This document shows, piece by piece, positions 37,144-59,536 of a stretch of 59,536 nucleotides of DNA. The notes under the pieces are model-generated. The model saw nothing but the letters and a program-made list of their open reading frames with translations, searched no databases and was not told the origin of the DNA. The DNA is from Flavobacteriales bacterium (GTDB lineage Bacteria > Bacteroidota > Bacteroidia > Flavobacteriales_F > PHOS-HE28). The stretch covers positions 1 through 59,536 of the forward strand of contig JBDTNF010000211.1 in NCBI GenBank assembly GCA_039933875.1, read 5' to 3'. Positions within the stretch are counted from its first letter, which is position 1. Each line of letters starts with the position of its first letter. The translations under genes and the position numbers were made by a program.

Positions 37144-37932
37144 CTACGCTCCAGTAAAGCTCGCCGCCCGCTTTTCCATGAAGGCGCTGGTGCCCTCCTT
37201 GAAGTCCGCCGTACCGAAGCACTTGCCGAACTCCTCGATCTCGCGTTGCATGCCATCGGCGCCGGGTTCGTAACCGGCGTTCACGGCGCGTATGGCGGCG
37301 GCGAGGGCGGTAGGGCTGTTGCGTGCGATCTTGCTCGCGAGTTCAAGGCAGGTGGAGAGCAGCTGGTCCGGCGGTACGACGTGGTTCACCAGCCCCCACC
37401 GCAAGGCTTCATCCGCAGGATCGAAGCCCACATTGCCCATCATGATCATTTCCAGCGCCTTGCCCTTGCCGACCAGTCGCGCGAGTCGTTGCGTGCCGCC
37501 GTAGCCCGGGATCACCCCGAGTGAGACTTCCGGCAAGCCAAGTTTGGCGGTGGTGCTCGCCACGCGGAAGTGACAGGCCATGGCCAATTCCAATCCACCA
37601 CCAAGTGCGAATCCGTTCACTGCGGCGATCACGGGCTTGTTCATGCGCTCCACATGATCGAAGAGCTTGCGCTGGCCATCCGCGCTCAACGCCCTGCCCT
37701 CTTCCACCGAGAAATGCGCGAACTCCTTGATGTCGGCCCCTGCGACGAACGCTTTCGTTCCGCTTCCGGTGATGATGAGCACGCGAACGCTCTTGTCCGC
37801 GTCCGCCTCGCTCAGCGCGCGATCAAGCTCGTCGATCGTTTCGCGGTTCAGCGCATTGAGCTTGTCAGGGCGGTTGATGGTGATCGTGCGAACGCCGGAG
37901 GCGTCTTCGATGAGGAGGTTGGTATAGCTCAT
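37144..37932 (-). CDS. Enoyl-CoA hydratase/isomerase
   Basis: NRPDKLNAL, AFVAGADI, NGFALGGGLELAMAC, PEV.LG.IPGYGGTQRL. Confidence 0.95.
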   Translation of the reverse strand: MSYTNLLIEDASGVRTITINRPDKLNALNRETIDELDRALSEADADKSVRVLIITGSGTKAFVAGADIKEFAHFSVEEGRALSADGQRKLFDHVERMNKPVIAAVNGFALGGGLELAMACHFRVASTTAKLGLPEVSLGVIPGYGGTQRLARLVGKGKALEMIMMGNVGFDPADEALRWGLVNHVVPPDQLLSTCLELASKIARNSPTALAAAIRAVNAGYEPGADGMQREIEEFGKCFGTADFKEGTSAFMEKRAASFTGA

Positions 37933-41622: not shown

Positions 41623-41885
41623 AAGCGCGCGGAAGGACAAGGTCCGCGCCAAAGTACGGGATGCCCCTTGGGCACCAGTTGGTTCGCGTTGGCCGACCTG
41701 ACGCAGGCTGGTCATAAGGACGAGCCAGAAAAAGCAGGAGGCGCATTACCGCTACACCGGGTGTCTTCTAGGAACCGAACGCCTCTTCGACCAATCTGTG
41801 AGAAACGTCGACGGAAAGAACTCCGAGGGCTCTATTCACGTACACCGGTCCCGACCCGATGCTGGGTGCCTAAATGTTGATAAGG

Positions 41886-44800
41886 ATGAACAAGGCGCTA
41901 CTCTTCGCTTTTGTCGCGTTCGTTTCCGGTCCACTTCTGGGGCAGACCGGGACCGAATTCTGGATGGCCCCCCCGGACATAACCTACTACCACAATACCC
42001 CGGGGGATGAGCCGATCTACATCAACGTGACCACGGGGGGCACTGCTGCGACCGTCACGATCTCGCAGCCAGCCAACGCGGCGTTCAATGGAGGCGCCCC
42101 GATCGTTCTGAACGTAGCGGCCAACGCTGCGGTCCGATACAACCTCACCTCGTTGAAGGCCCAATTGGAAACGCGTCCGACCAACAGCGTGTGCAATACG
42201 GGGCTTCGGATCCAATCGACGGCGAACATCACTTGCTACTACGAACCTAGCAACACGAACAACCCGGATATCATGGCCTTGAAGGGGCAGAACGGGTTAG
42301 GCACCGAGTTCTATATCCCACTGCACAAGCACACTCCGTTCTACAACAACAACTTCTCCCCGAACAACGCCGATCTGGCGTTCGCCTCGTTCGACATCGT
42401 CGCCACCCAGAACAATACAACGGTGATGATCTATTCGCCGGTGGCCGTTGATGGCCACGCGGCGCTTACACCTTTCACGGTCATCCTGAACCAGGGCCAG
42501 ACCTATTCCTGCGCGAACACCAATCCGGCAACACATACCGACCCACTGACCCACCCATCAGGTGCGGTCGTGCTTTCGGATAAGCCGGTGGCCGTTTCGA
42601 TAAAGGATGATTCCAATCACAATCCTTCAGGTGGCTGTTATGATCTGATGCTCGACCAGATCGTGCCTGTCAACGTTCTCGGCACCGAGTACGTGGCAGT
42701 GAAAGGCGCCTTGAACCCCACAGGAGATGAGTCCCTCTTCGTGATGGCGGTGCAGAACAATACACAAGTGTACATCGATGGCAATCCGACACCGGTAGCC
42801 ACGCTCTTCGCCGGTCAGTACTACAGGCATGACATGGATTACTTGAGTGGTGCAGCGAACAACTCGACGCTGGTCACCGGCTCCAAGCCATTGTATGCCA
42901 TACACGTTACCGGCTTTGGTTGCGAACAAGGGATGGCTATCCTCCCGCCCCTCAATTGTGCGGGCAGCACCCAACTAAGTTTCACACGATCGACCAGTGA
43001 AGCGTTCTATCTGAACCTTCTGGTCCGGAACGGATCACAGAACAATTTCGTGGTCAGCCCGGGAACAGCGACGATCCCGGGCTCTGCCTTTCAAGCCGTT
43101 CCTGGAACTGGTGGGGTGTGGATGGCCGCACAGATCCAGTACAACGCAACGCAAGTGCCGGTGAACCAGGCGTTCATCGTAAGCAATACATCGGATGTAT
43201 TCTCGCTGGCGATCATCAACGGGGGAGCAACATCGGGTTGCCGCTATGGCTTCTTCTCGGAGTTCGCAGGACAGATCAATGTGACGGCGGGTTCGGACCA
43301 AACGCGCTGTGCGGGCGACAACGTGACACTTACTGGAACTGTTTCCGGGGGGAGCACAACAGGGATCTGGACCACTTCCGGAAGCGGAACCTTCACACCG
43401 AGCGCGACCTCCCTCACAGCGACCTACCAACCCAGCATCGGCGATCTCGCGATCGGGAATGTGACCCTGACCCTGACCTCGACGGGGCCATGCACGCCCG
43501 CCAATGATGCGATGGTGGTCACCTTCAGCCCGAAACCGATCCCGAACGCCGGACCTGACCAGAGCGTGTGCCGCAACAACCCGGTGGTGCAATTGGCCGG
43601 TAGCATGCTCAATGCCGTTGGCGGCGTTTGGACCGGCGGAGCCGGCGCTTTCCTTCCCGGCAACAGCAACCTCAACGCGACCTACACACCGACGGCAGCC
43701 GACTTGGCCGCTGGCCAGGTGTGGATCAAGCTGGCCTCCACCGGCAATGGCGTGTGCGCCGCGGTTGTGGACAGCATGCTCGTGACCTTCACCCTTGCGC
43801 CGACCGTGAATGCTGGACCCGCCCAAACGCGTTGCGCGAACAACGCCGTGGCGCAATTGAACGGCTCGTTCACCGTGGCCACGGGAGCGGTTTGGAGCGG
43901 TGGCGCCGGATCCTTCGATCCGAGCACGACGAATACCAGTGCGCAATACACGCCCACCGCAGCGGAGATCGCCAGCGGCTCGGTGACCTTGACGTTGACC
44001 ACTATGGGCAATGGCAATTGCAATGCGGTCAGCAGCCAGGTCGTCATCACATACACAGCGGCGCCGGTGGTGAACGCTGGAGCCGCCGTTTCGCTCTGCG
44101 CGAACAATGCACAAGTGAGTTTGAGCGGATCGGTTACTGGCGCGACCGGCGGAGTTTGGAGCGGCGGTGCCGGCTCCTATTCGCCGAACAACACCGCGCT
44201 CAACGCGACCTATACACCTACGGCTGCGGAGATCGCCGCAGGGACGCTGACGCTGACCCTGAGCAGCACGGGCAACGGCAACTGCCTGCCTGTCACCAGT
44301 AACAAGGTGATCGGCTTCACGCCAGCACCCACGGTGAATGCTGGCCCGAACGGAACGGTGTGCGCGAACAACGCGAACATCACCTTGGCCGGTTCTTTCA
44401 CGCTCGCTACGGGCGCGGTTTGGAGCGGCGGCACGGGATCGTACAACCCGAACAACGCGACGATGACCGCAGTGTATACGCCGAGCGCGGCAGAACGGAC
44501 TGCGGGCACGGTGACACTGACGCTCACCACGGTGGGTAACAGCAACTGCAACGCGGTCAGCTCGAACGTGACCTACACGATCACGCCTGCGCCGACAGCC
44601 AACGCCGGAGTGGACCAAACGCTTTGCGCGAATAACGCAGTTGCAATATTGAACGGATCGTTCACGGTAGCTACCGGTGGCATCTGGAGCGGTGGCGCGG
44701 GATCATTCAGCCCCAGCACCACGAACATGGGTGCTCAATACACACCGACGCCGGGTGAGATCTCCAGCGGGTCAGTGGCACTGACGTTGACCACTGCCGC

Positions 44801-47800
44801 CAACGGTGGCTGTGTCGCCGTTGCCGATCAAGTACTGCTGTCCTTCACACCCGCGCCAGTAGTAAGCGCCGGCGCTGCTGTTTCGGTGTGCGCGAACAAC
44901 GTGCAGGTTTCCTTGAACGGCAATGTGATCGGAGCAACAGGAGGTGCTTGGAGCGGCGGAACGGGTTCCTTCAACCCGAATGCGACCACCCTGAACGTGA
45001 CCTACACACCGAGTGCTGCCGAGATCGCCGCAGGTACGGTGACACTGACATTGAGTTCCACTGGCAACGGTAATTGCAACGCGGTATCGAGCAGCAAGGT
45101 GATCACCATCACTCCTGCACCTACCGTCAATGCTGGTCCGAATGGAACGGTATGCGCGAACAACCCCGCGATCACGCTCGCGGGCGCGATCACTGTTGCT
45201 ACGGGTGCGACCTGGAGCGGCGGTGCGGGTACTTACAGTCCGAACACTACGACGCTGAACGCGATGTACACACCGAGCGCTGCAGAGCGCGCAGCGGGTA
45301 CGGTGACGCTCACGCTTACCACGGTGGGCAACGGCAACTGCAATGCGGTCAGCTCGAGCGTGACCTATGCGATCACGCCTGCTCCGACAGCGAATGCAGG
45401 CATCGACCGGACGGTGTGTGCCAACAACGCGGTGGTCACCTTGAACGGTTCGTTCACGGTGGCAACGGGAGGGATCTGGAGCGGTGGCGCAGGATCCTTC
45501 GATCCGAGCACCACGAACATGGGCGCGCAGTACACGCCGACGCCCGGTGAGATCTCCAGCGGTTCCGTTGCGCTGACCTTGACCACCACCGGCAACGGTG
45601 GTTGCCTCGCTGTTGCCGATCAGATGGTGATCGCCTTTACGGCGGCCCCTGTGGTGAACGCGGGTCCCGCTGTATCGCTCTGCGCGAACAATGCGCAAGT
45701 GAGCTTGAGCGGGTCAGTTACCGGCGCTATGGGTGGCATCTGGAGCGGTGGCACGGGCACCTTCAACCCGAGCAACACCGCGCTCATCGCGACCTATACA
45801 CCAACGGCCGCGGAGATCGCGGCGGGCACTTTGAGCCTCACGTTGACGAGCACCGGTAATGGCACCTGCAACCCTGTCTCGAGCAACAGGGTGATCACGT
45901 TCACATCGGCTCCTGTCGTGAGCGCTGGTTCGAATGGCAGCGTGTGTACGAACAACGCAACGATCAGCTTGAACGGATCGGTCACCGGTGCGACCGGTGC
46001 GATCTGGAGCGGCGGTGCGGGCACCTTCACGCCGAACAACACCACGCTGAATACGACCTACACGCCGACCGCCGCTGAACGAACCGCAGGTACGGTCACG
46101 CTGATCTTGACCTCTGCGGGCAACGGCAATTGCACTGCGGTCAGCGCGAGCGTCACCTATTCCATCACCCCTGCTCCGACCACGAACGCAGGCCCGGACC
46201 TATCGCTTTGCAGCAACAATCCAGTGGCCACGTTGAGTGGAACTTTCACCGTTGCGACCGGTGGTATCTGGAGCGGCGGCAACGGTTCCTTCAGCCCGAG
46301 CACCACGAACATGGGAGCGACCTACACGCCGACGGCAGTGGAGATCGCGAACGGGAATGTGACCCTGACCCTGACCACGACCGGCAACGGCACTTGTGTG
46401 GCTGTTACCGATGACATCCAACTGAACTTCATGCCGAGCCCGACCGCGAACGCAGGACCGAACCTGACGCTCTGCCGCAACAATGCGAGCGTTGCGCTGG
46501 GTGGGTCGGTAACGGTGGCCACTGGTGGCATTTGGAGCGGCGGTGCAGGTTCGTACACGCCGAACAACACCACGCTCAACGCGACCTACACACCGACCCC
46601 AGCGGAACTCGCAGCGGGCACGTTGACCTTGACCTTGACCACCACGGGCAACGGTAACTGCAATGCGGTTTCGAGCAGCCGCGTGATCACCTTCACTCCA
46701 GCACCGACCGTTGATGCTGGACCGAACGCGACGGTATGCGCGAACAACGCCGCGATCACCCTGGCGGGGACGTTCGCCATCTCGACCGGTGCCCAGTGGA
46801 CCGGTGGCAGCGGCACGTATAACCCGAACAACACCACGATGAACGCGGTGTACACTCCGAGCGCCGCCGAACGCGCCGCGGGTACGGTAACGCTTACGCT
46901 CACCACGGTGGGCAACGGGAATTGCAACGCGGTCAGTGATCAGGTGACGTTCACGATCACACCCGCACCGACGGCCAATGCGGGTCTCGATCGCACGGTG
47001 TGCGCGAACGATCCGGGAGTGGCATTGAACGGTTCATTCACCATTGCTACTGGAGGGATCTGGAGCGGCGGTGCTGGCACCTTCGACCCGAGCACCACGA
47101 ACATGGGCGCGATCTACACGCCGAGCACTGCGGAGATCACGGCCGGCATCGTGACCCTGACCCTGACGACCACCGGCAACGGAACGTGCAACGCGGTGAA
47201 CGATCAGATCGTGATCAGCATCACCGATGCACCAACGGTGAACGCCGGTGCACCGATCTCCCTCTGCGCGAACAATGCGCTAGTGAGCTTGAACGGCAGC
47301 GTGTTCGGTGCGACAGGCGGTGCATGGTCCGGCGGTTCCGGCACCTTCTCGCCGAACAACACGACGCTCAACGCGACCTATGCGCCGAGCGCGTCCGACC
47401 TCGCGGCGGGCACAGTGACGCTGACCTTGACGAGCACGGGCAATGGCACTTGCAACCCGGTATCGAGCAGCCGTGTGATCACCTTCACGCCTGCACCGAC
47501 CGCCAACGCAGGTGCGGATGCGAGCGTATGTGCGAACAATGCAAACATTCCCCTGGCAGGGGCCTTCACCGGTGCAACGGGTGCGATCTGGAGCGGTGGC
47601 ACGGGCACGTACAATCCGAACAACACCACACCGAACGCGGTGTACACGCCGAGCATCGCGGAACGCACTGCGGGCACGGTGACGCTCACGCTCACCACGG
47701 TGGGCAATGGCAACTGCAACGCTGTGAGCGATGCCGTGACCCTCAGCATCACGCCTTCCCCAACAGTGAATGCGGGTGTCGACCGCACGGTTTGCGCGAA

Positions 47801-50800
47801 CAACGCAGCGGTAACGCTGAATGGTTCCTTCACTGTTACTACCGGCGGTGTTTGGAGCGGCGGCAATGGAACCTTCGACCCGAGCACCACCAACATGGGC
47901 GCGATCTACACGGCAAGCGCTGCGGAGATCGCGAACGGTTCCGTGACCCTCACGCTGACCACCACGGGCAACGGCGGTTGCATCGCGGTGGCTGACCAGA
48001 TGGTGATCAACTTCACCGCTGCTCCTGTGGTGAACGCGGGCGCCCCTGTTTCGCTATGCGCGAACAATGCGCAAGTGGCCCTCAGCGGCAGTGTCTCCGG
48101 TGCGACAGGCGGCGTGTGGAGCGGAGGAACGGGCACCTACAGCCCGAACAACACCACGCTCAACGCGACCTACACGCCGACCGCCGCGGAGATTGCGGGT
48201 GGCACCTTGACGTTGACCCTGACGAGCACCGGCAATGGCACATGCAACCCTGTGCAGAGCAGCCGGGTGATCTCCTTCAGTCCGGCACCTTCGGTTAGTG
48301 CTGGTCCGAACGGAACGGTCTGCGCGAACAACTCGACGATCGCCCTGGCCGGTTCACAGAGCGGCGCTACGGGTGCTGTCTGGAGCGGTGGCACCGGCAC
48401 CTACAACCCGAACAACGCAACGCTGAACGCTGTGTACGCACCGAGCGCGACTGAGCGCACGGCTGGCACGGTGACGCTCACGCTCACCACAGTAGGCAAC
48501 GGCAATTGCAATGCGGTCAGCAGCCAGGTGACGTATTCGATCACACCTGCCCCGACGGCTAACGCAGGACCGAACCAATCGCGTTGCGCGAACAATGCGG
48601 TGGCGACACTTGCTGGCAGCGTGACCGTTGCGACAGGCGGCATCTGGAGCGGTGGCGCCGGAACCTTCGCACCGAGCACGACGAACCTGAACGCGACCTA
48701 CACGCCGACCGCTGCGGAGATCGCGACCGGCTTCGTCACGCTCACGCTGTCCACGGCGGGCAACAACAATTGCGTTGCTGCTTCCGATCAGGTCACGATC
48801 GCTTTCACCCCAGCGCCCGTTGCGAATGCCGGCGCTCCGGTTTCCATCTGCGTGAACGATCCGCAGGTTTCGATGACCGGTTCCGTTTCGGGCGCCACGG
48901 GCGGCGTATGGAGCGGCGGCCTTGGATCTTTCACGCCGAACAACACCGCGCTCAATGCGGTGTACACGCCAACTCCGTCGGAACTCGCTGCGGGCACGCT
49001 GACCCTGACCTTGACCACGACCGGCAATGGCAATTGCAACTCGGTTACCAGCACGCGCACGATCACCTTCACCCCGGCCCCGACAGTGAACGCCGGCGCG
49101 AACGGGACGGTTTGCTCGAATGCGTCCTTGATCACCCTGAACGGATCAGTGATAGGCGCGAGCGGCGCGATCTGGAACGGTGGAGCCGGTGTCTTCGCGC
49201 CGAACAACACCACGCTCAACGCAACCTATCAACCGACCAGCGCTGAACGCAATGCCGGAACGGTTACGTTGACACTGACATCGGCGGGCAATGGCAACTG
49301 CAACGCGGTGAGCTCGAACGTGACTTACACCATCACTCCCGCACCGACGGTCAGCGCAGGCGTGGATCAAGTGCGCTGCGCGAACAATGCGGTGACCACC
49401 CTGAACGGTGGCTTCACGATCGCGACCGGTGGCGTGTGGAGCGGTGGCGCGGGCACCTTCAGCCCGGGCACTACGAACATGAATGCGACCTACACGCCGA
49501 CCGTATCGGAGATCTCGAACGGCTCGGTGACACTGACATTGACGACCACGGGCAACAACAACTGCGTGGCGGTGAGCGACCAGATGGTGATCAGCTTCAC
49601 ACCGAGCCCAACGGTGGATGCTGGCGTCGATGTATCCGTGTGCCGGAACAATGCGAATGTCGCGCTGAACGGCTCGGTAGGTGTCGCTACGGGTGGCATC
49701 TGGAGCGGCGGTGCGGGGTCCTTCACGCCGAACAACACCACGCTCAATGCGACCTACACGCCGACGCCTGCGGAACTCGCGTTGGGTACGCTGACGTTGA
49801 CGCTGACCTCCACCGGTAATGGCAACTGCAACGCCGCATCGGACACCAAGGTGATCACCTTCACGCCTGCCCCAACGGTGAGTGCGGGATCGAACGGAAC
49901 GGTGTGCGCGAACAACGCGAACATCGCACTGGCGGGCGCGATCACCGGTGCTACGGGTGCAGCCTGGAGCGGTGGAACGGGCACTTACGACCCGAACAAC
50001 ACCACACTCAACGCTACCTACACGCCGAGCGCTGCGGAGCGCACAGCGGGGACAGTGACGCTGACTTTGACCACGACGGGCAACGGTAATTGCAACGCCG
50101 TGAGCGCCCAAGTGACGTACAGCATCACACCTGCGCCGACAGCGAACGCCGGTGCCGATCGCGTGCTCTGCGCGAACTATGCTTCGACCGGATTGTCCGG
50201 TGCATTCTCGATCGCCACAGGTGGTATCTGGAGCGGTGGCGCGGGCACCTTCGATCCGAGCACCACGAACATGAGCGCGATCTACACGCCGACGGTGGCT
50301 GAGGTCACGGCTGGTAGTGTGACGCTCACGCTCACGACAACGGGCAACGGCTTGTGCAACGCAGCAACGGATCAAGTGCTGCTGACCTTCACCGATCCTC
50401 CTTCAGCGAACGCTGGTCCGGATGTGACCCGTTGCGCGAACAACGCGGCTGTGGCACTCGGAGGAAGTGTGGTCGTGGCGACCGGTGGAACCTGGACCGG
50501 TGGAACCGGAACGTTCACGCCGAATGCGAACACACTGAACGCGACCTACAACCCAGGCGCTGGCGACCTCGCTGCTGGCCAGGTGACCTTGATGCTGACG
50601 ACTACGGGCAACGGTAACTGCACCCCGGCGACCGACACGAAGATCATCACCTACACACCTGCGCCGATCGTGAACGCTGGTGCGAATGGAAGTGTGTGTG
50701 CCAATGCTGCGACCATCGTCCTGAACGGTACCGTTACCGGTGCTGCAGGTGGCGTGTGGAGCGGTGGTGCGGGATCCTTCAGCCCGAACAACATCACGCT

Positions 50801-53800
50801 GAACGCGACCTACACACCGACCGCAGCGGAGCGCGCAGCAGGTACGGTAACGCTGACCTTGACCTCTGCGGGCAACGGCCAGTGCAATCCGGTATCGAAT
50901 ACCGTGACGTACTCGATCACGCCTGCGCCGACGGTGAACGCCGGTGTGGACCAGTCGGTATGCGGCAACAACGCCACGGCAACAGTGAACGCGGTGATCA
51001 CGGTTGCAACAGGTGTGCAGTGGTCGGGCGGCTCCGGTGTATACAGCCCCGGCAGCACAGCGCAGAACATCACGTACTCGCCTTCGCCGATCGAAGTGGT
51101 GAGCGGATCGGTGACCTTGATCGCAACAACCACGGGCAACGGTACCTGCGCGGCGGTAAGCGATGCCATGGTGATCACCTACACGCAGGCGCCTATGGCG
51201 AATGCGGGTCCCGATCAGACCGTGAGCAGCAATAACGCGAACACGACGCTCGCAGGTAGCTTCTCGATCGCCACCGGTGCGACCTGGAGCGGAGGAGCGG
51301 GAACGTACAATCCGAATAATACCACAATGAACGCGGTGTACACGCCGACCCCTGCGGAGGTCGCGGCGGGCAGTGTGACACTGACCCTGATCACGACTGG
51401 TAACGCGAGCTGTTCGCCTGCTACGGATGAAATCACGATCTTCTTCGGCGCAGCTCCCACCGCGAATGCTGGACCGGATCAAACCGTCTGCGCGAACAAC
51501 CCTGCTGTTCAGTTGAGCGGCGCGATCACCATCGCCACCGGCGGCATTTGGAGCGGCGGTACGGGCACTTACAACCCGAACAACAGCACGCTCAATGCGA
51601 TCTACACGCCGAGCGCTGCGGAACGCGCAGCAGGCATAGTGACCTTGACGCTCACCTCAGTGGGCAACGGCAACAGCAATCCGGTGAACGACCAGACCGT
51701 CATCACCATCACGCCAGCGCCGATCGCGAACGCAGGCGCTGATCGCACCGTGTGCGCGAACCAGCCAGCAGCGCAGCTCTCCGGCGTGGTGAACAACGCG
51801 ACCGGTGGTGTGTGGAGCGGCGGTTCAGGCACTTTCAATCCGAGCAACACGAACCCGAACGCGACCTACACGCCGACGTTGGGCGAGATCGCCGCAGGCA
51901 TGGTGACGCTCACCTTGAGCAGCACCGGCAATGGCTTGTGCAATGGAGTGGCGGACCAGATGGTCATCTTCATTGTCCCTGCTCCGGTGGTGAACGCGGG
52001 TATTGACCGGACGGTCTGCTCCAACAACGCCAGCGTGCAGATGGCCGGATCTGTGAGCAACGCGGGCGGCGGCATCTGGAGCGGCGGCACGGGCACCTTC
52101 TCGCCGAGCATCAATGCGCTGAATGCGGTGTACACGCCCAGCACGTCGGAGCTCGCGAACGGTTCTCTGACCTTGACCCTGAGCAGCACCGGCAACGGCA
52201 CTTGCCTCTCGGTGAGCGACCAAATGACGATCTTCTTCTCGCAGAGCCCTGCGGTGAACGCCGGCATAGACCGCACGGTGTGCGCGAACGACCCCACGGT
52301 GATCCTCAACGGCTCCGTGACCATTGCCAGCGGTGGTGTGTGGAGTGGTGGCGGCGGAACCTTCACCCCGAACGCGAACACCCTGAATGCGACCTACTAC
52401 CCGAGCCCGGCTGAGGTGGCACTGGGTACCGCAACGCTGACCTTGACTTCCATGGGCAATGGCTTGTGCAACGCCGTGAGCGACCAGATGGTGATCACCA
52501 TCATCGCCTCGCCGAGCGCGAATGCGGGTGCTGACATAGCGATCTGCTCGAACAACGCACAGGTACAACTCGGTGGATCGGTGAGCGGCGCCGGTGGCGG
52601 CCAGTGGAGTGGTGGTGCAGGCATTTTCACGCCGAGCATCGCCTCGCTGAACGCGACCTACACACCGACCCCAGCTGAGGTCGCCGCAGGCAATCTGATG
52701 CTGACATTGACGACGATCGGCAACGGCAACTGCGTGCCGGTCTCGGATCAAGTACACATCACCTTCACTGCTTCGCCCACCGCGAATGCCGGTGCGAATG
52801 GTGTGCGCTGCGCGAACAACGCGGGCATCCAACTGAACGGAAGCGTCACCATCGCGAACGGAGGAAGCTGGTCCGGAGCAGGAGGAACCTTCACGCCGAA
52901 CGCGAATGCGCTGAACGCGGTGTACACGCCTTCCGCTGGCGAACTCGCTGCAGGGCAGGTGACGTTGACCCTGACCACCAGCGGCAACAACGGGTGCCTA
53001 GCGGTGAGCGATGACGTGAGCTTCACGTTCACACCTGCCCCAACTGCGAACGCGGGTGTTGATCCCTTCACCTGTGCGAACAACGCAACGGTGACGCTGA
53101 ATGGTGCGATCACCGTAGCTACCGGAGCTCTCTGGAGTGGCGGCAACGGCACCTATGCGCCGAGCAATAGCGCGCTCAACCCGATCTACACGCCTAGTGC
53201 ATCGGAGATCGCCGCAGGCACGGTGACACTCACGTTGACCACGGCGGGCAACGGCACGTGCAACCCGGTCAATGATGAGGTTGTGATCAGCATCACCCCA
53301 TCGCCGATCGTGAATGCCGGTACGCCGCTGACCTCTTGCGCGAACAACCCTGCCGCGCAGTTGGCCGGTTCCGTTCAGAACGCGACCGGTGGCATCTGGA
53401 GCGGTGCTGGAACCTTCTCGCCGAGCGCCACCAACCTGAGTGCGACCTATACGCCGAGCAATGCGGAAGTGGCTGCCGGCACAGCGATCATCACCCTCAC
53501 CAGCACGGGCAACGGCTTGTGCAACGCGGTATCGTCGCAAGTGGCGTTGACCATCACGGCAGCTCCGATCGTGGAAACTGGTTCGCCACAAACGTTGTGC
53601 GCGAATAATGCAGTAGCGCAATTGGCAGGTCAAGTGATCAACGCCTCCGGTGGTACATGGAGCGGTGTTGCCGGTGCCTTCAGCCCGAACTCAAGTGCGC
53701 TGAACGCGACGTACACACCGAGCGCAACGGAGATCGCGAGCGGCCAGGTCTGGCTCTTCCTCACCTCAACCGGCAACGGCGGCTGTCTTGCTTCCCGCGA

Positions 53801-56800
53801 CTCCGTGCAGTTGCAGTTCACTCCGGCGCCGACGGTGAACGCTGGTCCTGATGCCCATGTCTGTGCGAATGCTGCGCAGGTGAGCTTGAACGGTGCCATC
53901 ACCGTGGCGAACGGCGGCATCTGGACCGGTGGGAATGGCTCCTACACGCCAGACAATTCAGCGCTCAACGCGACCTACCTCCCGACGGCTGCGGAGATCG
54001 CCTCTGGCCAATTCACCCTGGTGCTGAGCAGTACGGGCAATGGCAACTGCGCCATCGTTCGCGACAGCTTGGTGGTCCTGGTGGATCCCGTTCCCGTGGT
54101 GAATGCAGGCCCTGACCAACAGATCTGCGCGAACAATTCGAACGTGCAGATGAACGGCTTCGTCGGCAATGCGCCGGGTGGAGCTTGGAGCGGTGGTGCG
54201 GGAACCTTCTTCCCAAGCAACACCATGCTCGCCACGCAGTATGCCCCGACGGCTACTGAGATCGCTTCCGGTTCGCTCACGTTGACGCTGACTTCCACGG
54301 GGACCGCATTCTGCAACGCTGTCACCGATCAGATGACGATCGTGTTCACCGGTTCGCCGATCGTGAGCGCTGGCAGTGATCTGCAGATCTGTGCGAACAA
54401 CAGCGCCGTGCAACTCACAGGTAACGTCACCAACGCAAGTGGTGGCACCTGGACCGGTGGCAGCGGATCCTTCGCGCCGAACTCCAACGTGCTGAGCCCG
54501 GTGTACACGCCGAGCGCTGGTGAACTCGCCGCAGGCCCATTGTCCCTCTACTTGACAAGCACGGGTAACGGCAACTGCATCTCTGTGCGCGATACGGTGA
54601 TCGTGACCTTCACACCTGCGCCAACGGTGAATGCAGGCGCGGACCTGGATGTGTGCACGAACAACCCAGTAGTGACCCTCAACGGTTCCATCACAGTAGC
54701 AACGGGCGCACAATGGAGTGGCGGCCTCGGCACCTACACCCCGAACGCGCAGGCGCTGAACGCGCAGTACGTGCCATCCGCTTTCGAACTGGGATCGGGT
54801 AGTGTGCAGCTCACGCTGACCACAATTGGCAACAGCAACTGTGTCGCTGTGACCGACCAAATAACCATCACCGTAACGCCATCACCGGTGGTGAACGCGG
54901 GGGCGGATGTGATCACCTGCTCGAACCAATTGCAAGTGCCGCTGAACGGCACGGTACAAGGCGGTGCCACCACGGGTCTGTGGAGCACTTCCGGAACCGG
55001 TACGTTCAGCCCGAGCACATCCACATTGAACGCGACGTACATCGCGAGCAGCCTCGATTCGCTGAACGGAACGGTGGATCTGACGCTCACGTCCAGCAAC
55101 AACGGCCTTTGCACTGCAGTGAGCGATGTTATGACGGTGACCATCCTGCCGAACGCGATAGCGAACGCAGGTGTGGATCAAGTTGTCTGCTCCACAACAA
55201 GCACGATCCAATTGAACGGCACCATCACCGGCAATGCGACCCAAGGCCAGTGGACAACCACAGGTGCGGGCGGTTTCTCGCCGAGTGCAAGTGCCGCGAA
55301 CGCGGTGTACCAGATCGCAACAGGCGACCCTGCGATGGGCACCCTCACCTTCACTTGGAGCGTGAACAGTTGTGACAATGCCATGGACCAAATGGTGCTG
55401 ACGATCACGCCTGCATCGGTGGCCAATGCCGGTGCGGATCAAGTGACCTGCTATAACAACCTGAACATCGTGATCAACGGATCGGTGAGCGGCGCGTCGA
55501 ACAGCGGCACGTGGAGCACCTTGGGTAGCGGCAGCTTCGCCAACCCGAACACGGCGCTGAGCAACGTGTATCAAGCGAACGCGAACGATCAGCTCGCTGG
55601 TGGCGCCTACCTGGTACTCACTGCAACAACAACGGGCGTCTGCCAAGCCGCGATCGACACGATGTTCATCGCGATCCAGCCTGCGGGTACGGTGAACGCA
55701 GGTATTGATGTGGTCGCTTGCGCGAACAACGCGGTGACGCAACTCAACGGGACGCTGAGCGGCGACGCTACCCAGGTACAGTGGAGCACCTCCGGCACGG
55801 GCTCCTTCTTCCCGAACGCCAACGTGCTTACGCCGACCTACGTGCCGAGCGCGATCGACACGACGATCGGCACCCTCACGTTGACACTGAGCGCACCGGG
55901 CACCTGCAACAACGCGACCGATGAGATCCAGTTGACACTGACCCCGGCGCCGTATGTGAACGCGGGCCCGGATCAGACCTACTGCGATCAAGTGACGCAG
56001 TTCAACCTGAACGGAACGATCACGGGCATCACGAGCGCGGGCCAGTGGACCACGACCGGTACCGGCACGATCGCGAATGCGGGTTCCTTGAGCACGACCT
56101 ACACGGCGAGCGCGGCGGACGTCGCCAATGGTTCCATCACCTTCACGCTCACCTCCGTGAACAACGCGAACTGCAATGCGGTGACCGATGCGATGACGAT
56201 CTACCTCATCGACGGCCTCATCGTGAGTGCCGGACCGGACCAGAATGTGTGTGTGGCTTCCGATCATGCCAACATGCAGGCGACGGTGCAGAACGGATCG
56301 CCATCGGGTATCTGGACCACTACGGGTACCGGCAACTTCCAGCCGAACGCTGATGTCCTGAACGCGCAGTACTTCTTCTCGGCGAACGATGTCACCAGCG
56401 GCTCGGTGGTGCTCACGTTCACGGCCACGAACACGGGTACTTGTCCGGTGATGCAGGATCAGATGGTGCTCACCTTCGGCAGCAGCACCTTCGCTTATGC
56501 GGGTGCCGATCAGGCGCTCTGCGCGAACTCGCCAATCGCCCAACTCGCCGGCAACTTCAGCGGTGGTGCGCAAGGCATCCAATGGAGCACAAGTGGCTCG
56601 GGCTTCTTCAGCAACACCACGGACCCGAATGCGACCTACACGCTGAGCGCTTCGGATATCGCTGCTGGTCAAGTGCAGCTAACGCTTACGACGATCACGA
56701 GCGGTTCCTGCTTGCCCGCATCGGATGTAGTGGCGATCGCGGTGAACGCACTGCCGAACATCACGGCAGGCGGAGACATCACCGCTTGCACAGCTGCTGC

Positions 56801-58844
56801 TATACAGGTCACAGCCAATGCTGCGAACGCGGGCGGAGGTATGTGGACCACTTCGGGTACGGGTACGTTCTTCGACCCGAACGCACTGGCCACGCTTTAC
56901 ACGCCAAGTGCCGCCGACAGCCTTGCCGGTTCCGTTACGCTGACCGTGACGACTACGGGTGTGGCACCGTGCAGTACGGTATCGGATCAATTGGTGATCA
57001 GCTTCGGTGGTGGCCTTGCTGCGGCAGCAGGCGCGGATGTGGTCGCATGCAGCACCAACCCGAACATTGTGCTGAGCGGTGCAGTGGCCGGAACGACCAC
57101 CGGCACTTGGAACACCAGTGGCACGGGCTCCTTCCTGCCGAACGCGAGCGCGCTCAACGCGACCTACATCCCCGGTGCGGCGGATTTCGCGATCGGCGAC
57201 ATCAACCTGATCCTGAGCACCACGAACAATCTGGGATGCCCTGCCGGACGTGACACCTTGGTGGTGAGCTACCACGTACCGCCGACGGTGAACGCTGGTA
57301 CGGATGTGCTCCTGTGCAATGGCTTGCAGAACGTACAACTCAATGGAAGCGCGCAGAACCAAGGCTCCGTGCAGTGGGCGACCATGGGTACAGGATCATT
57401 CACGCCGAATGTGAATGCGCTGAACGCCACCTACTTGCCGACCGTGAACGACAGCATCGCCGGTGGCGTGTACCTCGTGCTCACCGCCTTCGGAACGGGT
57501 ACGTGCGGAAATGCTTCGGACTCGGTGTTCATCGACATTGGTCCGACGCGGATCGCGAGTGCCGGTGTTGATCAGACGATCTGTGCGAATGGCGGAGCGA
57601 TCCAGTTGGCAGGCACGATCACCGGCGTCACTGGCGGTGTATGGACCACCAATGGCACAGGCACCTTCGCGCCTGGCGCAACCGACCTGAACCCGGACTA
57701 CGTGCCGAGCACGACCGACCTGGTCTTCCCGCAACTCCGCTTCGTGCTGAGCACAACGGGGAACATGGGCTGCCCTGCGCACTCGGATACGGTGACGGTC
57801 GCTCTTCAGCAACCACCGACCGTGAATGCGGGCAACGATGTGACCACATGCGATGCCTCGGCCGATGTGCAACTGACGGGCTCGTTCAGTGGCGCGGCGG
57901 GTATCCATTGGACGACGAACAGCTCTGGCGTCTTCGTGCCGAACGCTGATGCACCGAACGCGGTGTACCAGCCAAGTGTGGCGGACTCGCTCGCGCAGAA
58001 TGTGCTGTTGATCTTGACGACCACCGGCAACCAGAACTGTCCGGCGGCTGCGGATACCATGCACCTGTCCTTCGTGAACCCGCTTGTCGCTGGCTTCACC
58101 TTCGCTAACCCTTGTGCCGGATCAGCAACGCTCTTCACTGATGCCAGTACCACGAGCGGATCGGCGATCATCGGTTGGAACTGGAGCTTCGGCAACGGCA
58201 CCACTGCCACAGGCCCGCAAGCTGCCGCCATTTTCCCGACGGCTGGACAGTACAACGTATCGCTCACCGTCTTCTCACAGAGCGGCTGCAACGCGACATA
58301 CAATGCAGTGATCGATGTGGTCAACTCGCCGGTCGCTGGGTTCAGCATCGATGGCGATCCCTTTACCGACACGCCGATCGTCTTCACGGACCACTCCTTC
58401 GGTGCAACAGGCTGGCAGTACAACTTCGGAGATGGCACAGGTTCGCTGGCTTCCGCTCCGACGCACGAGTACACCGACGCGGGTCAGTTCCTGATCGTGC
58501 AGACCGTGGTGAACGCCGCTGGATGCATGGATCACGACTCGTTGTTGGTCAGCATCACGGAGAAGGACATCCTTCCCCCGAAACTACCGAACGCGTTCAG
58601 CCCGAACGGCGACGGAGTGAACGATGTGTTCTACGTGCGTGGCGGACCATTCGAGACCATGCACCTTCGCGTGTACAATGGCTGGGGCGAACTGATCTTC
58701 GAGACGGAGGATCCCACCTTCGGCTGGGACGGTACGCATGACGGCACACCGGAGATCAACGGGGTGTACGTCTACTCCGTGGTCGCCACGACAACGGATG
58801 GAACGCTGCACGATCGTTCCGGCAAGATCACACTCATGCGATAA
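41886..58844 (+). CDS. Giant T9SS type-B-secreted adhesin (IgGFc-binding N-domain, 56 Ig-like repeats, 2 PKD domains, CHU_C/gliding-type CTD), 5652 aa
   Basis: Signal peptide MNKALLF...LLG/Q; GTEF, SDKPV.V, DQ.VPV..LG.EY (IgGFc-binding); tandem repeats; WSFGNG and YNFGDG PKD motifs; PNAFSPNGDGVND...YNGWG...WDG...GVYVY...G.ITLMR type B CTD. Confidence 0.93.
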   Translation: MNKALLFAFVAFVSGPLLGQTGTEFWMAPPDITYYHNTPGDEPIYINVTTGGTAATVTISQPANAAFNGGAPIVLNVAANAAVRYNLTSLKAQLETRPTNSVCNTGLRIQSTANITCYYEPSNTNNPDIMALKGQNGLGTEFYIPLHKHTPFYNNNFSPNNADLAFASFDIVATQNNTTVMIYSPVAVDGHAALTPFTVILNQGQTYSCANTNPATHTDPLTHPSGAVVLSDKPVAVSIKDDSNHNPSGGCYDLMLDQIVPVNVLGTEYVAVKGALNPTGDESLFVMAVQNNTQVYIDGNPTPVATLFAGQYYRHDMDYLSGAANNSTLVTGSKPLYAIHVTGFGCEQGMAILPPLNCAGSTQLSFTRSTSEAFYLNLLVRNGSQNNFVVSPGTATIPGSAFQAVPGTGGVWMAAQIQYNATQVPVNQAFIVSNTSDVFSLAIINGGATSGCRYGFFSEFAGQINVTAGSDQTRCAGDNVTLTGTVSGGSTTGIWTTSGSGTFTPSATSLTATYQPSIGDLAIGNVTLTLTSTGPCTPANDAMVVTFSPKPIPNAGPDQSVCRNNPVVQLAGSMLNAVGGVWTGGAGAFLPGNSNLNATYTPTAADLAAGQVWIKLASTGNGVCAAVVDSMLVTFTLAPTVNAGPAQTRCANNAVAQLNGSFTVATGAVWSGGAGSFDPSTTNTSAQYTPTAAEIASGSVTLTLTTMGNGNCNAVSSQVVITYTAAPVVNAGAAVSLCANNAQVSLSGSVTGATGGVWSGGAGSYSPNNTALNATYTPTAAEIAAGTLTLTLSSTGNGNCLPVTSNKVIGFTPAPTVNAGPNGTVCANNANITLAGSFTLATGAVWSGGTGSYNPNNATMTAVYTPSAAERTAGTVTLTLTTVGNSNCNAVSSNVTYTITPAPTANAGVDQTLCANNAVAILNGSFTVATGGIWSGGAGSFSPSTTNMGAQYTPTPGEISSGSVALTLTTAANGGCVAVADQVLLSFTPAPVVSAGAAVSVCANNVQVSLNGNVIGATGGAWSGGTGSFNPNATTLNVTYTPSAAEIAAGTVTLTLSSTGNGNCNAVSSSKVITITPAPTVNAGPNGTVCANNPAITLAGAITVATGATWSGGAGTYSPNTTTLNAMYTPSAAERAAGTVTLTLTTVGNGNCNAVSSSVTYAITPAPTANAGIDRTVCANNAVVTLNGSFTVATGGIWSGGAGSFDPSTTNMGAQYTPTPGEISSGSVALTLTTTGNGGCLAVADQMVIAFTAAPVVNAGPAVSLCANNAQVSLSGSVTGAMGGIWSGGTGTFNPSNTALIATYTPTAAEIAAGTLSLTLTSTGNGTCNPVSSNRVITFTSAPVVSAGSNGSVCTNNATISLNGSVTGATGAIWSGGAGTFTPNNTTLNTTYTPTAAERTAGTVTLILTSAGNGNCTAVSASVTYSITPAPTTNAGPDLSLCSNNPVATLSGTFTVATGGIWSGGNGSFSPSTTNMGATYTPTAVEIANGNVTLTLTTTGNGTCVAVTDDIQLNFMPSPTANAGPNLTLCRNNASVALGGSVTVATGGIWSGGAGSYTPNNTTLNATYTPTPAELAAGTLTLTLTTTGNGNCNAVSSSRVITFTPAPTVDAGPNATVCANNAAITLAGTFAISTGAQWTGGSGTYNPNNTTMNAVYTPSAAERAAGTVTLTLTTVGNGNCNAVSDQVTFTITPAPTANAGLDRTVCANDPGVALNGSFTIATGGIWSGGAGTFDPSTTNMGAIYTPSTAEITAGIVTLTLTTTGNGTCNAVNDQIVISITDAPTVNAGAPISLCANNALVSLNGSVFGATGGAWSGGSGTFSPNNTTLNATYAPSASDLAAGTVTLTLTSTGNGTCNPVSSSRVITFTPAPTANAGADASVCANNANIPLAGAFTGATGAIWSGGTGTYNPNNTTPNAVYTPSIAERTAGTVTLTLTTVGNGNCNAVSDAVTLSITPSPTVNAGVDRTVCANNAAVTLNGSFTVTTGGVWSGGNGTFDPSTTNMGAIYTASAAEIANGSVTLTLTTTGNGGCIAVADQMVINFTAAPVVNAGAPVSLCANNAQVALSGSVSGATGGVWSGGTGTYSPNNTTLNATYTPTAAEIAGGTLTLTLTSTGNGTCNPVQSSRVISFSPAPSVSAGPNGTVCANNSTIALAGSQSGATGAVWSGGTGTYNPNNATLNAVYAPSATERTAGTVTLTLTTVGNGNCNAVSSQVTYSITPAPTANAGPNQSRCANNAVATLAGSVTVATGGIWSGGAGTFAPSTTNLNATYTPTAAEIATGFVTLTLSTAGNNNCVAASDQVTIAFTPAPVANAGAPVSICVNDPQVSMTGSVSGATGGVWSGGLGSFTPNNTALNAVYTPTPSELAAGTLTLTLTTTGNGNCNSVTSTRTITFTPAPTVNAGANGTVCSNASLITLNGSVIGASGAIWNGGAGVFAPNNTTLNATYQPTSAERNAGTVTLTLTSAGNGNCNAVSSNVTYTITPAPTVSAGVDQVRCANNAVTTLNGGFTIATGGVWSGGAGTFSPGTTNMNATYTPTVSEISNGSVTLTLTTTGNNNCVAVSDQMVISFTPSPTVDAGVDVSVCRNNANVALNGSVGVATGGIWSGGAGSFTPNNTTLNATYTPTPAELALGTLTLTLTSTGNGNCNAASDTKVITFTPAPTVSAGSNGTVCANNANIALAGAITGATGAAWSGGTGTYDPNNTTLNATYTPSAAERTAGTVTLTLTTTGNGNCNAVSAQVTYSITPAPTANAGADRVLCANYASTGLSGAFSIATGGIWSGGAGTFDPSTTNMSAIYTPTVAEVTAGSVTLTLTTTGNGLCNAATDQVLLTFTDPPSANAGPDVTRCANNAAVALGGSVVVATGGTWTGGTGTFTPNANTLNATYNPGAGDLAAGQVTLMLTTTGNGNCTPATDTKIITYTPAPIVNAGANGSVCANAATIVLNGTVTGAAGGVWSGGAGSFSPNNITLNATYTPTAAERAAGTVTLTLTSAGNGQCNPVSNTVTYSITPAPTVNAGVDQSVCGNNATATVNAVITVATGVQWSGGSGVYSPGSTAQNITYSPSPIEVVSGSVTLIATTTGNGTCAAVSDAMVITYTQAPMANAGPDQTVSSNNANTTLAGSFSIATGATWSGGAGTYNPNNTTMNAVYTPTPAEVAAGSVTLTLITTGNASCSPATDEITIFFGAAPTANAGPDQTVCANNPAVQLSGAITIATGGIWSGGTGTYNPNNSTLNAIYTPSAAERAAGIVTLTLTSVGNGNSNPVNDQTVITITPAPIANAGADRTVCANQPAAQLSGVVNNATGGVWSGGSGTFNPSNTNPNATYTPTLGEIAAGMVTLTLSSTGNGLCNGVADQMVIFIVPAPVVNAGIDRTVCSNNASVQMAGSVSNAGGGIWSGGTGTFSPSINALNAVYTPSTSELANGSLTLTLSSTGNGTCLSVSDQMTIFFSQSPAVNAGIDRTVCANDPTVILNGSVTIASGGVWSGGGGTFTPNANTLNATYYPSPAEVALGTATLTLTSMGNGLCNAVSDQMVITIIASPSANAGADIAICSNNAQVQLGGSVSGAGGGQWSGGAGIFTPSIASLNATYTPTPAEVAAGNLMLTLTTIGNGNCVPVSDQVHITFTASPTANAGANGVRCANNAGIQLNGSVTIANGGSWSGAGGTFTPNANALNAVYTPSAGELAAGQVTLTLTTSGNNGCLAVSDDVSFTFTPAPTANAGVDPFTCANNATVTLNGAITVATGALWSGGNGTYAPSNSALNPIYTPSASEIAAGTVTLTLTTAGNGTCNPVNDEVVISITPSPIVNAGTPLTSCANNPAAQLAGSVQNATGGIWSGAGTFSPSATNLSATYTPSNAEVAAGTAIITLTSTGNGLCNAVSSQVALTITAAPIVETGSPQTLCANNAVAQLAGQVINASGGTWSGVAGAFSPNSSALNATYTPSATEIASGQVWLFLTSTGNGGCLASRDSVQLQFTPAPTVNAGPDAHVCANAAQVSLNGAITVANGGIWTGGNGSYTPDNSALNATYLPTAAEIASGQFTLVLSSTGNGNCAIVRDSLVVLVDPVPVVNAGPDQQICANNSNVQMNGFVGNAPGGAWSGGAGTFFPSNTMLATQYAPTATEIASGSLTLTLTSTGTAFCNAVTDQMTIVFTGSPIVSAGSDLQICANNSAVQLTGNVTNASGGTWTGGSGSFAPNSNVLSPVYTPSAGELAAGPLSLYLTSTGNGNCISVRDTVIVTFTPAPTVNAGADLDVCTNNPVVTLNGSITVATGAQWSGGLGTYTPNAQALNAQYVPSAFELGSGSVQLTLTTIGNSNCVAVTDQITITVTPSPVVNAGADVITCSNQLQVPLNGTVQGGATTGLWSTSGTGTFSPSTSTLNATYIASSLDSLNGTVDLTLTSSNNGLCTAVSDVMTVTILPNAIANAGVDQVVCSTTSTIQLNGTITGNATQGQWTTTGAGGFSPSASAANAVYQIATGDPAMGTLTFTWSVNSCDNAMDQMVLTITPASVANAGADQVTCYNNLNIVINGSVSGASNSGTWSTLGSGSFANPNTALSNVYQANANDQLAGGAYLVLTATTTGVCQAAIDTMFIAIQPAGTVNAGIDVVACANNAVTQLNGTLSGDATQVQWSTSGTGSFFPNANVLTPTYVPSAIDTTIGTLTLTLSAPGTCNNATDEIQLTLTPAPYVNAGPDQTYCDQVTQFNLNGTITGITSAGQWTTTGTGTIANAGSLSTTYTASAADVANGSITFTLTSVNNANCNAVTDAMTIYLIDGLIVSAGPDQNVCVASDHANMQATVQNGSPSGIWTTTGTGNFQPNADVLNAQYFFSANDVTSGSVVLTFTATNTGTCPVMQDQMVLTFGSSTFAYAGADQALCANSPIAQLAGNFSGGAQGIQWSTSGSGFFSNTTDPNATYTLSASDIAAGQVQLTLTTITSGSCLPASDVVAIAVNALPNITAGGDITACTAAAIQVTANAANAGGGMWTTSGTGTFFDPNALATLYTPSAADSLAGSVTLTVTTTGVAPCSTVSDQLVISFGGGLAAAAGADVVACSTNPNIVLSGAVAGTTTGTWNTSGTGSFLPNASALNATYIPGAADFAIGDINLILSTTNNLGCPAGRDTLVVSYHVPPTVNAGTDVLLCNGLQNVQLNGSAQNQGSVQWATMGTGSFTPNVNALNATYLPTVNDSIAGGVYLVLTAFGTGTCGNASDSVFIDIGPTRIASAGVDQTICANGGAIQLAGTITGVTGGVWTTNGTGTFAPGATDLNPDYVPSTTDLVFPQLRFVLSTTGNMGCPAHSDTVTVALQQPPTVNAGNDVTTCDASADVQLTGSFSGAAGIHWTTNSSGVFVPNADAPNAVYQPSVADSLAQNVLLILTTTGNQNCPAAADTMHLSFVNPLVAGFTFANPCAGSATLFTDASTTSGSAIIGWNWSFGNGTTATGPQAAAIFPTAGQYNVSLTVFSQSGCNATYNAVIDVVNSPVAGFSIDGDPFTDTPIVFTDHSFGATGWQYNFGDGTGSLASAPTHEYTDAGQFLIVQTVVNAAGCMDHDSLLVSITEKDILPPKLPNAFSPNGDGVNDVFYVRGGPFETMHLRVYNGWGELIFETEDPTFGWDGTHDGTPEINGVYVYSVVATTTDGTLHDRSGKITLMR
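43272..58079 (+). repeat. 56 tandem intragenic repeats of ~264 nt (88 aa)
   Basis: Counted from the translation: P.vnAG....C.nn....L.G....a.gg.Wsgg.G.f.P.....natYtP...e...G.vtLtLt..gng.C....d...i. Repeats 3-38 are exactly 264 nt (for example starts at 43797, 50925 and 51189). Confidence 0.95.
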
Positions 58845-58859
58845 GCGAACCTGAGCAAC

Positions 58860-59536
58860 ATGAAGAACCTGAACAACCTTCCAGCGCTGCTTTTCGCACT
58901 CTGTGTGAGCGGCGGGACCAGGGCCCAGGACGCGCACTTGTCCCAGTATGAGACCGCACCGAACACGTTGAATCCCGCACTTACCGGGATGTTCGAGAAC
59001 GCGGACTTCCGTATGACGAGCAACGTGCGCAGCCAGTGGAACAGCTTATCGAGCAGTTTCCTCACCACCGGATTCGCGTACGACATCGCACTGCAGAACC
59101 GCTTCGGGGCTGGACTGTACATGACGAACTACAACCAAGCGGGCATTGTGAACACCTTCCAGATAGGTGCCTCCGGAGCCTACAACGTGTCAGGGAAGAG
59201 CGCGCACCACACGCTATCCGTGGGGGCACATCTGGGTCTGATCTACAAGAAGGTGAACAGCCAACAACTACTCTGGGACAACCAGTACAACGATGGGTAC
59301 TTCGATAGTGATCTGCCCTCAGGTGAGATCCTGCAACGTGGTTCGCGCTTCATGCCGGACCTCTCCGCGGGTGTGGCCTACCGGGGTACGAACAAGCGCA
59401 AACGGGTGAACCCGTTCGGCAACTTCGCACTGTTCCACGTCACCACGCCGGATGAATCGATCCTGCGCACCACAGCCAGCGACCTGCCTATCCGGTACTC
59501 CGTGAACGGAGGGGCGCGGGTGGAATTCAATGAAGG
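58860..59536 (+). CDS. PorP/SprF family T9SS outer-membrane protein (3'-truncated by window edge)
   Basis: Not in the ORF track because it has no stop in the window. Reads MKNLNNLPALLFALCVSGGTRA/QDAHLSQYETAPNTLNPALTG...RSQW; directly follows a type B CTD gene. Confidence 0.9.
   Translation, partial: MKNLNNLPALLFALCVSGGTRAQDAHLSQYETAPNTLNPALTGMFENADFRMTSNVRSQWNSLSSSFLTTGFAYDIALQNRFGAGLYMTNYNQAGIVNTFQIGASGAYNVSGKSAHHTLSVGAHLGLIYKKVNSQQLLWDNQYNDGYFDSDLPSGEILQRGSRFMPDLSAGVAYRGTNKRKRVNPFGNFALFHVTTPDESILRTTASDLPIRYSVNGGARVEFNE

Follow-up and report, generated by a model that had tools for sequence, protein, structure and literature searches.

A giant type IX secretion substrate of a Flavobacteriales bacterium predicted to be a GhpA-type rod with disulfides between neighbouring immunoglobulin-like domains

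Grappling hook protein A (GhpA) of Aureispira sp. CCB-QB1 is a heptameric substrate of the T9SS (type IX secretion system), 5898 residues long and with 52 immunoglobulin (Ig)-like repeats (10.1101/2024.01.29.577165). According to that preprint, intramolecular disulfides join neighbouring Ig-like domains of GhpA (for example Cys2988–Cys3140, 152 residues apart), contacts between protomers are ascribed to hydrogen bonds, residues 26–1402 form the hook, and homologues of PorP and PorE are encoded downstream of the gene. It also states that T9SS cargo crosses the outer membrane folded, after Sec export, and that no structure of SprB was at hand for the authors. Here we analysed a stretch of 59,536 nucleotides from a Flavobacteriales bacterium (contig JBDTNF010000211.1 of assembly GCA_039933875.1; hereafter the window), in which one open reading frame (ORF; 41874..58844, + strand) encodes a giant T9SS surface protein of 5656 residues with 120 Cys, as judged from its translation and from Pfam and NCBIfam matches. 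Most of this protein is an array of 56 Ig-like repeats, termed R1 to R56. Our data favour, with a probability of roughly 85%, a pairing of Cys14 of repeat n with the F–G-loop Cys76 of repeat n+1. The giant protein would then be a disulfide-stapled Ig rod of the GhpA type, secreted by the T9SS. This mechanism is known from one experimental structure; in the literature searched here, GhpA is the one solved protein in which inter-domain disulfides have so far been seen.

The ORF runs from an IgGFc_binding-like N-terminus through 56 repeats of 88 residues and two PKD domains to a CHU_C (type B) sorting domain. The Ig/PKD-like repeats (residues 466–5402; 43269..58079, +), delimited by repeat alignment, have a period of 87–90 residues, mostly 88. 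Once cut and aligned, 54 of the 56 have two Cys each and no more, placed at 14 and 76 in the numbering of our alignment and hidden Markov model (HMM), which are positions 13 and 75 in the initial annotation of this DNA. The two exceptions are neighbours, as that annotation had reported. R31 (residues 3105–3192; 51186..51449, +) lacks Cys14 and carries Ser3118 in its place (AGC, 51225..51227, +; context PDQTVSSNN), and R32 (residues 3193–3280; 51450..51713, +) lacks Cys76 and carries Ser3268 in the F–G loop (AGC, 51675..51677, +; context GNGNSNPV). Single TGC-to-AGC changes, also proposed there, are plausible: TGC encodes 92 and TGT 18 of the 110 Cys in the array, so each AGC Ser is one step away from Cys. 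Each of the two repeats keeps its other Cys. For Cys76 of R31 (C3180, TGT, 51411..51413, +), the putative partner given by the couplings and co-losses described below is Cys14 of R30 (C3030, TGC, 50961..50963, +). For Cys14 of R32 (C3206, TGC, 51489..51491, +), it is Cys76 of R33 (C3356, TGC, 51939..51941, +), 150 residues downstream. Within the window alone, the chance that one Cys14 loss and one Cys76 loss fall in this n/n+1 adjacency is about 1 in 56.

Across homologues, the two Cys are lost together in one register only. A profile of the 56 repeats, run against 1.84 billion representative sequences, matched 7988 proteins at E ≤ 0.001. The analysed set of 254 proteins consisted of the best 150 of these 7988, another 103 giant homologues from a second search, and the window protein, with 9066 repeats in all. 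Under a coverage filter requiring that the profile match span the scored position, 8520 junctions between consecutive repeats could be scored. Both Cys were kept at 8425 of these and both were lost at 62, while Cys14(n) alone was lost at 33 and Cys76(n+1) alone at none. In the same proteins and under the same filter, there were no co-losses in any of four alternative registers (same repeat, 76(n)/14(n+1), n/n+2 and n/n−1). The initial annotation had suggested covariation of Cys loss among homologues as a check on the pairing, and had named homologues losing both Cys within one repeat as evidence against it; such a repeat occurred in 0 of 8806, and the covariation appeared in the proposed register. 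A first, less redundant set of 151 proteins gave the table [[3972,10],[32,17]] (p = 9.5e-28). The apparent Cys76-only losses, 10 in this first set and 11 when the larger set was left unfiltered, were rejected. They stem from partial HMM matches, mostly to another domain type that follows the array, and disappear under the coverage filter. Without the filter, paired-loss junctions number 67; clustering them at 62% identity gives at least 14 groups, and the residue pairs that replace the Cys are varied (S/S, G/N, A/A, A/T, P/S, V/A, G/F, P/Y, Y/F and others).

Junctions that have lost Cys14 alone mostly contain another Cys nearby. At 30 of the 35 Cys14(n)-only junctions counted without the filter, a linker Cys precedes the NAG motif of repeat n+1 by about six residues. 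This variant of the staple is found in homologues P0034, P0053, P0102, P0106, P0111, P0120, P0127 and P0129, in which the next F–G-loop Cys is kept. In P0102, P0106, P0111 and P0120, junctions with neither Cys14 nor a linker Cys also lack Cys76(n+1). Together with the paired losses, the linker-Cys pattern points to a simple sequence rule: with few exceptions, repeat n+1 retains its F–G-loop Cys only if a partner is available in domain n or in the linker. A positive control comes from an optional pair of Cys at 67 and 82 within one repeat, which occurred with both members in 92 repeats and with a single member in 10. This pair lies on strands F and G (for example in P0084, P0034 and P0106) and by appearance forms an extra intra-domain disulfide in a subfamily.

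Mean-field direct-coupling analysis of 8149 distinct two-repeat windows (effective number of sequences, Meff, 5900) returned the same register. Among inter-repeat couplings, 14(n)–76(n+1) comes first, at rank 13 of 14706, followed by 16(n)–77(n+1), 17(n)–77(n+1), 15(n)–2(n+1) and 16(n)–79(n+1). Being independent of the Cys losses, the couplings at 16, 17 and 77 provide separate evidence of contact. The same-repeat 14–76 coupling ranks 221 and 238, the level found between any two invariant columns. Intra-repeat couplings agree in both halves of the two-repeat windows and match a β-sandwich: 67–82, the strongest overall, together with 65–84 and 63–84, corresponds to the F–G hairpin, and 11–85 and 13–87 set strand A′ parallel to strand G. 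An AlphaFold2 model of R30–R33 has strands E11–14, E63–71 and E80–88. Combined with the couplings 11–85 and 13–87, these strands place residues 14 and 88 side by side at the domain's C-terminal end, whereas couplings and modelled strands put residue 76 in the turn of the F–G hairpin, at the N-terminal end. Owing to these opposite positions, a 14–76 bond within one domain would have to span strand G, while a bond between 14(n) and 76(n+1) would cross only the junction.

The AlphaFold2 model, computed with an alignment of 53 four-repeat windows of the same protein, reached a mean predicted local distance difference test (pLDDT) score of 95.9 and a predicted template modelling (pTM) score of 0.65. 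In this model the repeats form a straight head-to-tail Ig-like array, as in the GhpA stem. In structural searches with Foldseek and a second aligner, the GhpA cryogenic electron microscopy (cryo-EM) entries 9flp, 9flu, 9flv, 9flw, 9flx, 9fly and 9g8b occupied ranks 1–6 and 11. They superpose with Z scores of 11.1–14.5 over 312–319 of 352 residues, covering all four domains, with root-mean-square deviations of 4.3–5.2 Å for six entries and 8.8 Å for 9fly. Sequence searches of the PDB with the four-repeat stretch and with the repeat profile gave nothing meaningful, the best matches being to unrelated proteins at E 0.1 and E 0.6; GhpA is therefore reachable only by fold comparison. A literature search for inter-domain disulfides in T9SS Ig-repeat proteins, which left supplementary files outside its scope, found only the GhpA preprint.

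The Cys content at the end of the array provides a further line of evidence. Continuation of the n/n+1 register would require an odd Cys count in whatever follows the last repeat. The count is odd in 188 of the 208 proteins whose last repeat keeps Cys14, and even in 4 of the 5 whose last repeat lacks it (Fisher p = 0.0006). The window protein has three Cys after its array. Cys14 of the last repeat, R56 (C5326, 57849..57851, +), would pair with the F–G-loop Cys of the first PKD domain, C5472 (58287–58289, +), 146 residues on. The other Cys of that domain, C5414 (58113–58115, +), precedes the sole Cys of the second PKD domain, C5551 (58524–58526, +; NAAGC), by 137 residues. Two Cys in PKD1 and the late one only in the last PKD is what the initial annotation had described. 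Its inference that no Cys is left unpaired agrees with the tally in this protein (7 before R1, 110 in the repeats and 3 after them, 120 in all) and does not extend to a general rule, as the N-terminal counts given below indicate. The same genome encodes further proteins with related repeats and the same two Cys: C277 (a 3259-residue frame with 31 matches), C44 (1867 residues), C179 (1988), C148 (1074), C265 (2151), C261, C171 and C30. Single-Cys repeats are few in these proteins and stand at array ends, with the first repeat of C171 lacking Cys76 and the last repeat of C261 lacking Cys14, which fits the n/n+1 register.

The Cys pattern, the register of the co-losses and couplings, and the likeness to GhpA in fold and domain arrangement are observed; how the Cys pair is a matter of weighing. 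An intra-domain disulfide is the usual expectation for a two-Cys Ig-like domain. Were Cys14 bonded to Cys76 within each repeat, R31 and R32 would each be left with one free Cys and their adjacency would be chance; the window-only figure for that chance is small, yet it was noticed after the fact. This account predicts same-repeat co-loss, of which there is none against 62 cases in the n/n+1 register, and the optional 67–82 pair demonstrates that a true intra-domain pair does show same-repeat co-occurrence. The same-repeat 14–76 coupling at invariant-column level, the couplings that set residue 14 at the G-strand end opposite the F–G loop, and the odd C-terminal Cys counts add to the case, leaving an intra-domain bond close to refuted and very improbable. 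Still less probable is another role for the conserved Cys, such as metal binding or a different modification, with no disulfides formed. Register-specific pairwise co-loss and replacement by a nearby linker Cys are what a two-partner covalent link predicts, and the solved relative GhpA is reported to have disulfides at this place. T9SS cargo, by the same preprint, is already folded when it passes the outer membrane after Sec export, and oxidizing folding would presumably be available to it in the periplasm. A slightly better but still highly improbable option is that the n/n+1 pair is real and the bond joins protomers of a staggered, multi-stranded bundle. GhpA is described as a heptameric bundle, and covariation sees contacts within and between chains alike. 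By contrast, the disulfides of GhpA are reported as intramolecular and its protomer contacts as hydrogen bonds. In the proteins analysed here, the couplings 15(n)–2(n+1) and 16(n)–3(n+1) tie the turn to the N-terminal linker of the next domain itself, the compensating Cys is part of the chain's own covalent linker, and nothing in these data points to oligomerization of the giant protein. The preferred reading thus remains a pairing of Cys14(n) with Cys76(n+1) along one chain, supported strongly though indirectly by register-specific co-loss, couplings, C-terminal parity and the GhpA precedent.

Several observations weigh against this pairing or limit the force of the counts, beginning with the blindness of covariation to an intramolecular as opposed to a staggered-protomer bond. 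Of the 67 paired-loss junctions, 53 belong to one cluster, and with many relatives among the 254 proteins the p-values make the data look more independent than they are. Five Cys14-only losses (two each in P0159 and the divergent P0137, one in P0231) retain Cys76(n+1) with no linker Cys present, which indicates that a free F–G-loop Cys is tolerated at times. At the N-terminal end, parity among homologues is unbiased (98 odd versus 83 even), no partner for Cys76 of R1 was identified, and the equivalent of C456, the Cys upstream of R1, is missing from some homologues in which Cys76 of R1 is retained. The window protein's seven Cys ahead of R1 would leave one over for that Cys76. Between 4 and 8 Cys precede R1 in homologues that share the Ser/Ser junction, and several of these have odd totals, so in some at least one Cys must be free or differently paired. 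Finally, GhpA Cys2988 and Cys3140 map near position 10–11 and then about 77 of the next domain, a mapping that interpolates aligned ranges (model 1–352 versus chain 2893–3234) and is not a residue-level alignment.

The Ser/Ser junction itself is old. It recurs in 45 other homologous proteins from separate assemblies, as Ser/Ser in all but one and as Ser/Gly in that one, with 61–93% identity between the window and these homologues over the R31–R32 stretch (P0003 left out). Sample X1, possibly the source sample, spans the whole stretch including both AGC codons, and contigs of sample X2 from the same study cover 51100–51490 including the first; neither contains any difference. The junction is therefore not an assembly error, a possibility that the initial annotation had named as one that would overturn it. 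A second X1 contig matches 51129–51348 and 51597–51622 at lower identity. It has a diverged skip of 153 bases, between 51149 and 51303, as well as a single T>C at 51317, and probably represents a different array repeat or a related strain. The runs holding the stretch are rhizosphere metagenomes.

R31/R32 also lies near a boundary in the array, as had been proposed. R3–R30 are triplet-periodic, with identities of 0.69–0.70 at lags 3, 6 and 9 and 0.56–0.57 at other lags, and no such periodicity was found by lag identity in R31–R56; the junction is one repeat past R30, where the periodicity stops. In the homologues, the Ser14 repeat is preceded by 9 to 42 repeats, a multiple of three in every case except three fragmentary entries that start inside the array, and mostly 25 repeats follow. 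Homologue lengths (P0151–P0251) step by about 264 residues. Multiples of three and steps of this size indicate that the triplet zone (here R1–R30, 43269..51185) grows and shrinks by three-repeat units while the distal part stays constant.

This position invites the idea that the unstapled junction is a selected hinge or mechanical weak point between a length-variable proximal zone and a constant distal zone. Its retention in the 45 other homologues, after a multiple of three repeats and usually with 25 to follow, its place one repeat beyond the triplet zone, and the conservation of Ser at 47 of 47 and 46 of 47 junctions all speak for such a hinge. Ser conservation is unexceptional, however, given that 76 of 176 neighbouring columns are also at least 95% conserved. 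A Ser/Ser pair is isosteric with the lost Cys pair and the interface may stay packed, AlphaFold2 confidence does not drop at the junction (a weak test), and paired losses elsewhere are scattered along the arrays of other proteins. A two-mutation barrier through single-Cys intermediates explains persistence without selection. We therefore regard a selected hinge as unlikely; the most likely consequence of the Ser/Ser change is one junction that is unstapled but still packed. A wider version, in which the staple is a building rule of a large Bacteroidota family of T9SS adhesins (the 7988 profile matches) with interchangeable donor Cys, and R31/R32 is a selected flexible or force-sensitive joint, is equally doubtful as a whole.

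On the pairing that we prefer, the giant protein would be a rod-like, T9SS-secreted surface protein about 58 Ig-like domains long, with a disulfide between Cys14(n) and Cys76(n+1) at almost every domain junction. Cys14, at the end of strand A′, would lie beside the C-terminal end of domain n, facing Cys76 in the F–G loop at the N-terminal end of domain n+1, and the same register may continue into the two C-terminal PKD domains. The staples would stiffen the rod, in line with the proposal made for the GhpA stem; both bond formation in this protein and the rigidity that it would confer are inferred from sequence and fold. The Ser14/Ser76 pair of R31/R32 would go back to a single ancient paired loss shared by descent among a whole group of Flavobacteriales proteins. 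Once one Cys was lost, the orphan partner would also be removed, and regaining the bond would take two mutations. The order suggested by the homologue sequences is that Cys14 goes first and the orphan Cys76 soon after, since well-covered Cys76-only states number zero and uncompensated Cys14-only states are rare (5).

If the staples exist, giant T9SS proteins of this kind would be covalently braced rods with a length of about a quarter of a micrometre and not floppy strings of beads, which bears on their reach from the cell, their resistance to force and their passage through the secretion pore. The same design is suggested for thousands of uncharacterized homologues in Flavobacteriales, Cytophagales and their relatives. 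What is new here is evidence that stapling may be the norm across a very large family, together with an alternative position in the linker for the donor Cys; the finding opens no new kind of biology. The natural Ser/Ser junction would offer a ready-made internal control for rigidity experiments.

The N-terminus of the giant protein is hydrophobic by eye from the translation (MLIRMNKALLFAFVAFVSGPLLGQ) and is followed by an IgGFc_binding domain (PF17517; residues 139–424; 42288..43145, +; Pfam E 1.1e-33). The seven Cys ahead of R1 are at residues 107, 121, 213, 255, 350, 362 and 456. The two PKD domains identified by Pfam occupy 58080..58580 (+), and the CHU_C/T9SS type B sorting domain, which contains no Cys, follows at 58581..58796 (+; residues 5570–5641; PF13585, E 1.8e-17; TIGR04131, E 7.8e-13), with a TIGR04131 score of 48.4 bits against the NCBIfam cut-off of 35. 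Directly downstream of the giant gene, a PorP/SprF-family gene (58860..59534, +; PF11751, E 4e-22) runs off the end of the contig at 59536. Such a gene is the usual partner of cargo with a C-terminal domain (CTD) of type B, and the arrangement is as in ghpA–ghpB. With both the sorting domain and the adjoining PorP/SprF gene present, the giant protein is by sequence a T9SS type B CTD cargo. The 88-residue repeat scored under the Pfam gathering threshold when R30–R33 with flanks was searched (PKD_4, 18.3 bits; K319L-like_PKD, 16.7; cut-off 27), and its fold is Ig/PKD-like despite these scores. NCBIfam has no model for this repeat or for the N-terminal domain. Close homologues come from Flavobacteriales metagenome-assembled genomes and are named ‘gliding motility-associated C-terminal domain-containing protein’ in their sources. 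Divergent from the giant gene lies a gene for a histidine kinase of 1241 residues (HAMP, HisKA, HATPase_c; 37990–41715, −); the window also encodes an enoyl-CoA hydratase (37144–37932) and a polysaccharide-biosynthesis protein (35060–36541). The G+C content of the window is 60.7%.

Among known systems, GhpA is the closest. Both proteins are giant T9SS substrates (5656 residues and 56 repeats here, 5898 residues and 52 repeats in GhpA), each ending in a T9SS sorting domain and followed downstream by a gene for a PorP homologue, and the predicted spacing of the inter-domain disulfide (150 residues here) is close to the 152 residues reported for GhpA. The two differ in that identity over the structural alignment is merely 18–24%, the repeats are 88 residues long here and about 82–86 in GhpA, and the N-terminal module is about 465 residues with an IgGFc_binding domain (PF17517) here, compared with the hook of about 1400 residues described for GhpA. 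As this hook module is not shared, the giant protein is not a GhpA orthologue. Heptamerization and binding to the flagellum of prey are features described for GhpA; the window protein is known from its sequence.

With SprB and other Bacteroidota proteins carrying the ‘gliding motility-associated C-terminal domain’, the giant protein shares its size, a tandem array of Ig-like repeats, a sorting domain of type B (CHU_C) and the PorP/SprF-family gene beside its own. Unlike SprB, it has no match to the SprB repeat (PF13573) in the three protein segments scanned, and we do not attribute a role in gliding to it. PKD arrays (PF18911, PF00801) have the same β-sandwich, Ig-like fold, and the two C-terminal domains of the giant protein are true PKD domains, whereas the 88-residue repeat falls below the Pfam thresholds. 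In the isopeptide-bonded pilins and adhesins of Gram-positive bacteria, covalent cross-links stiffen or toughen chains of Ig-like domains. Those links lie mostly within domains; the link predicted here would be a disulfide, and it would cross the junction from one domain to the next.

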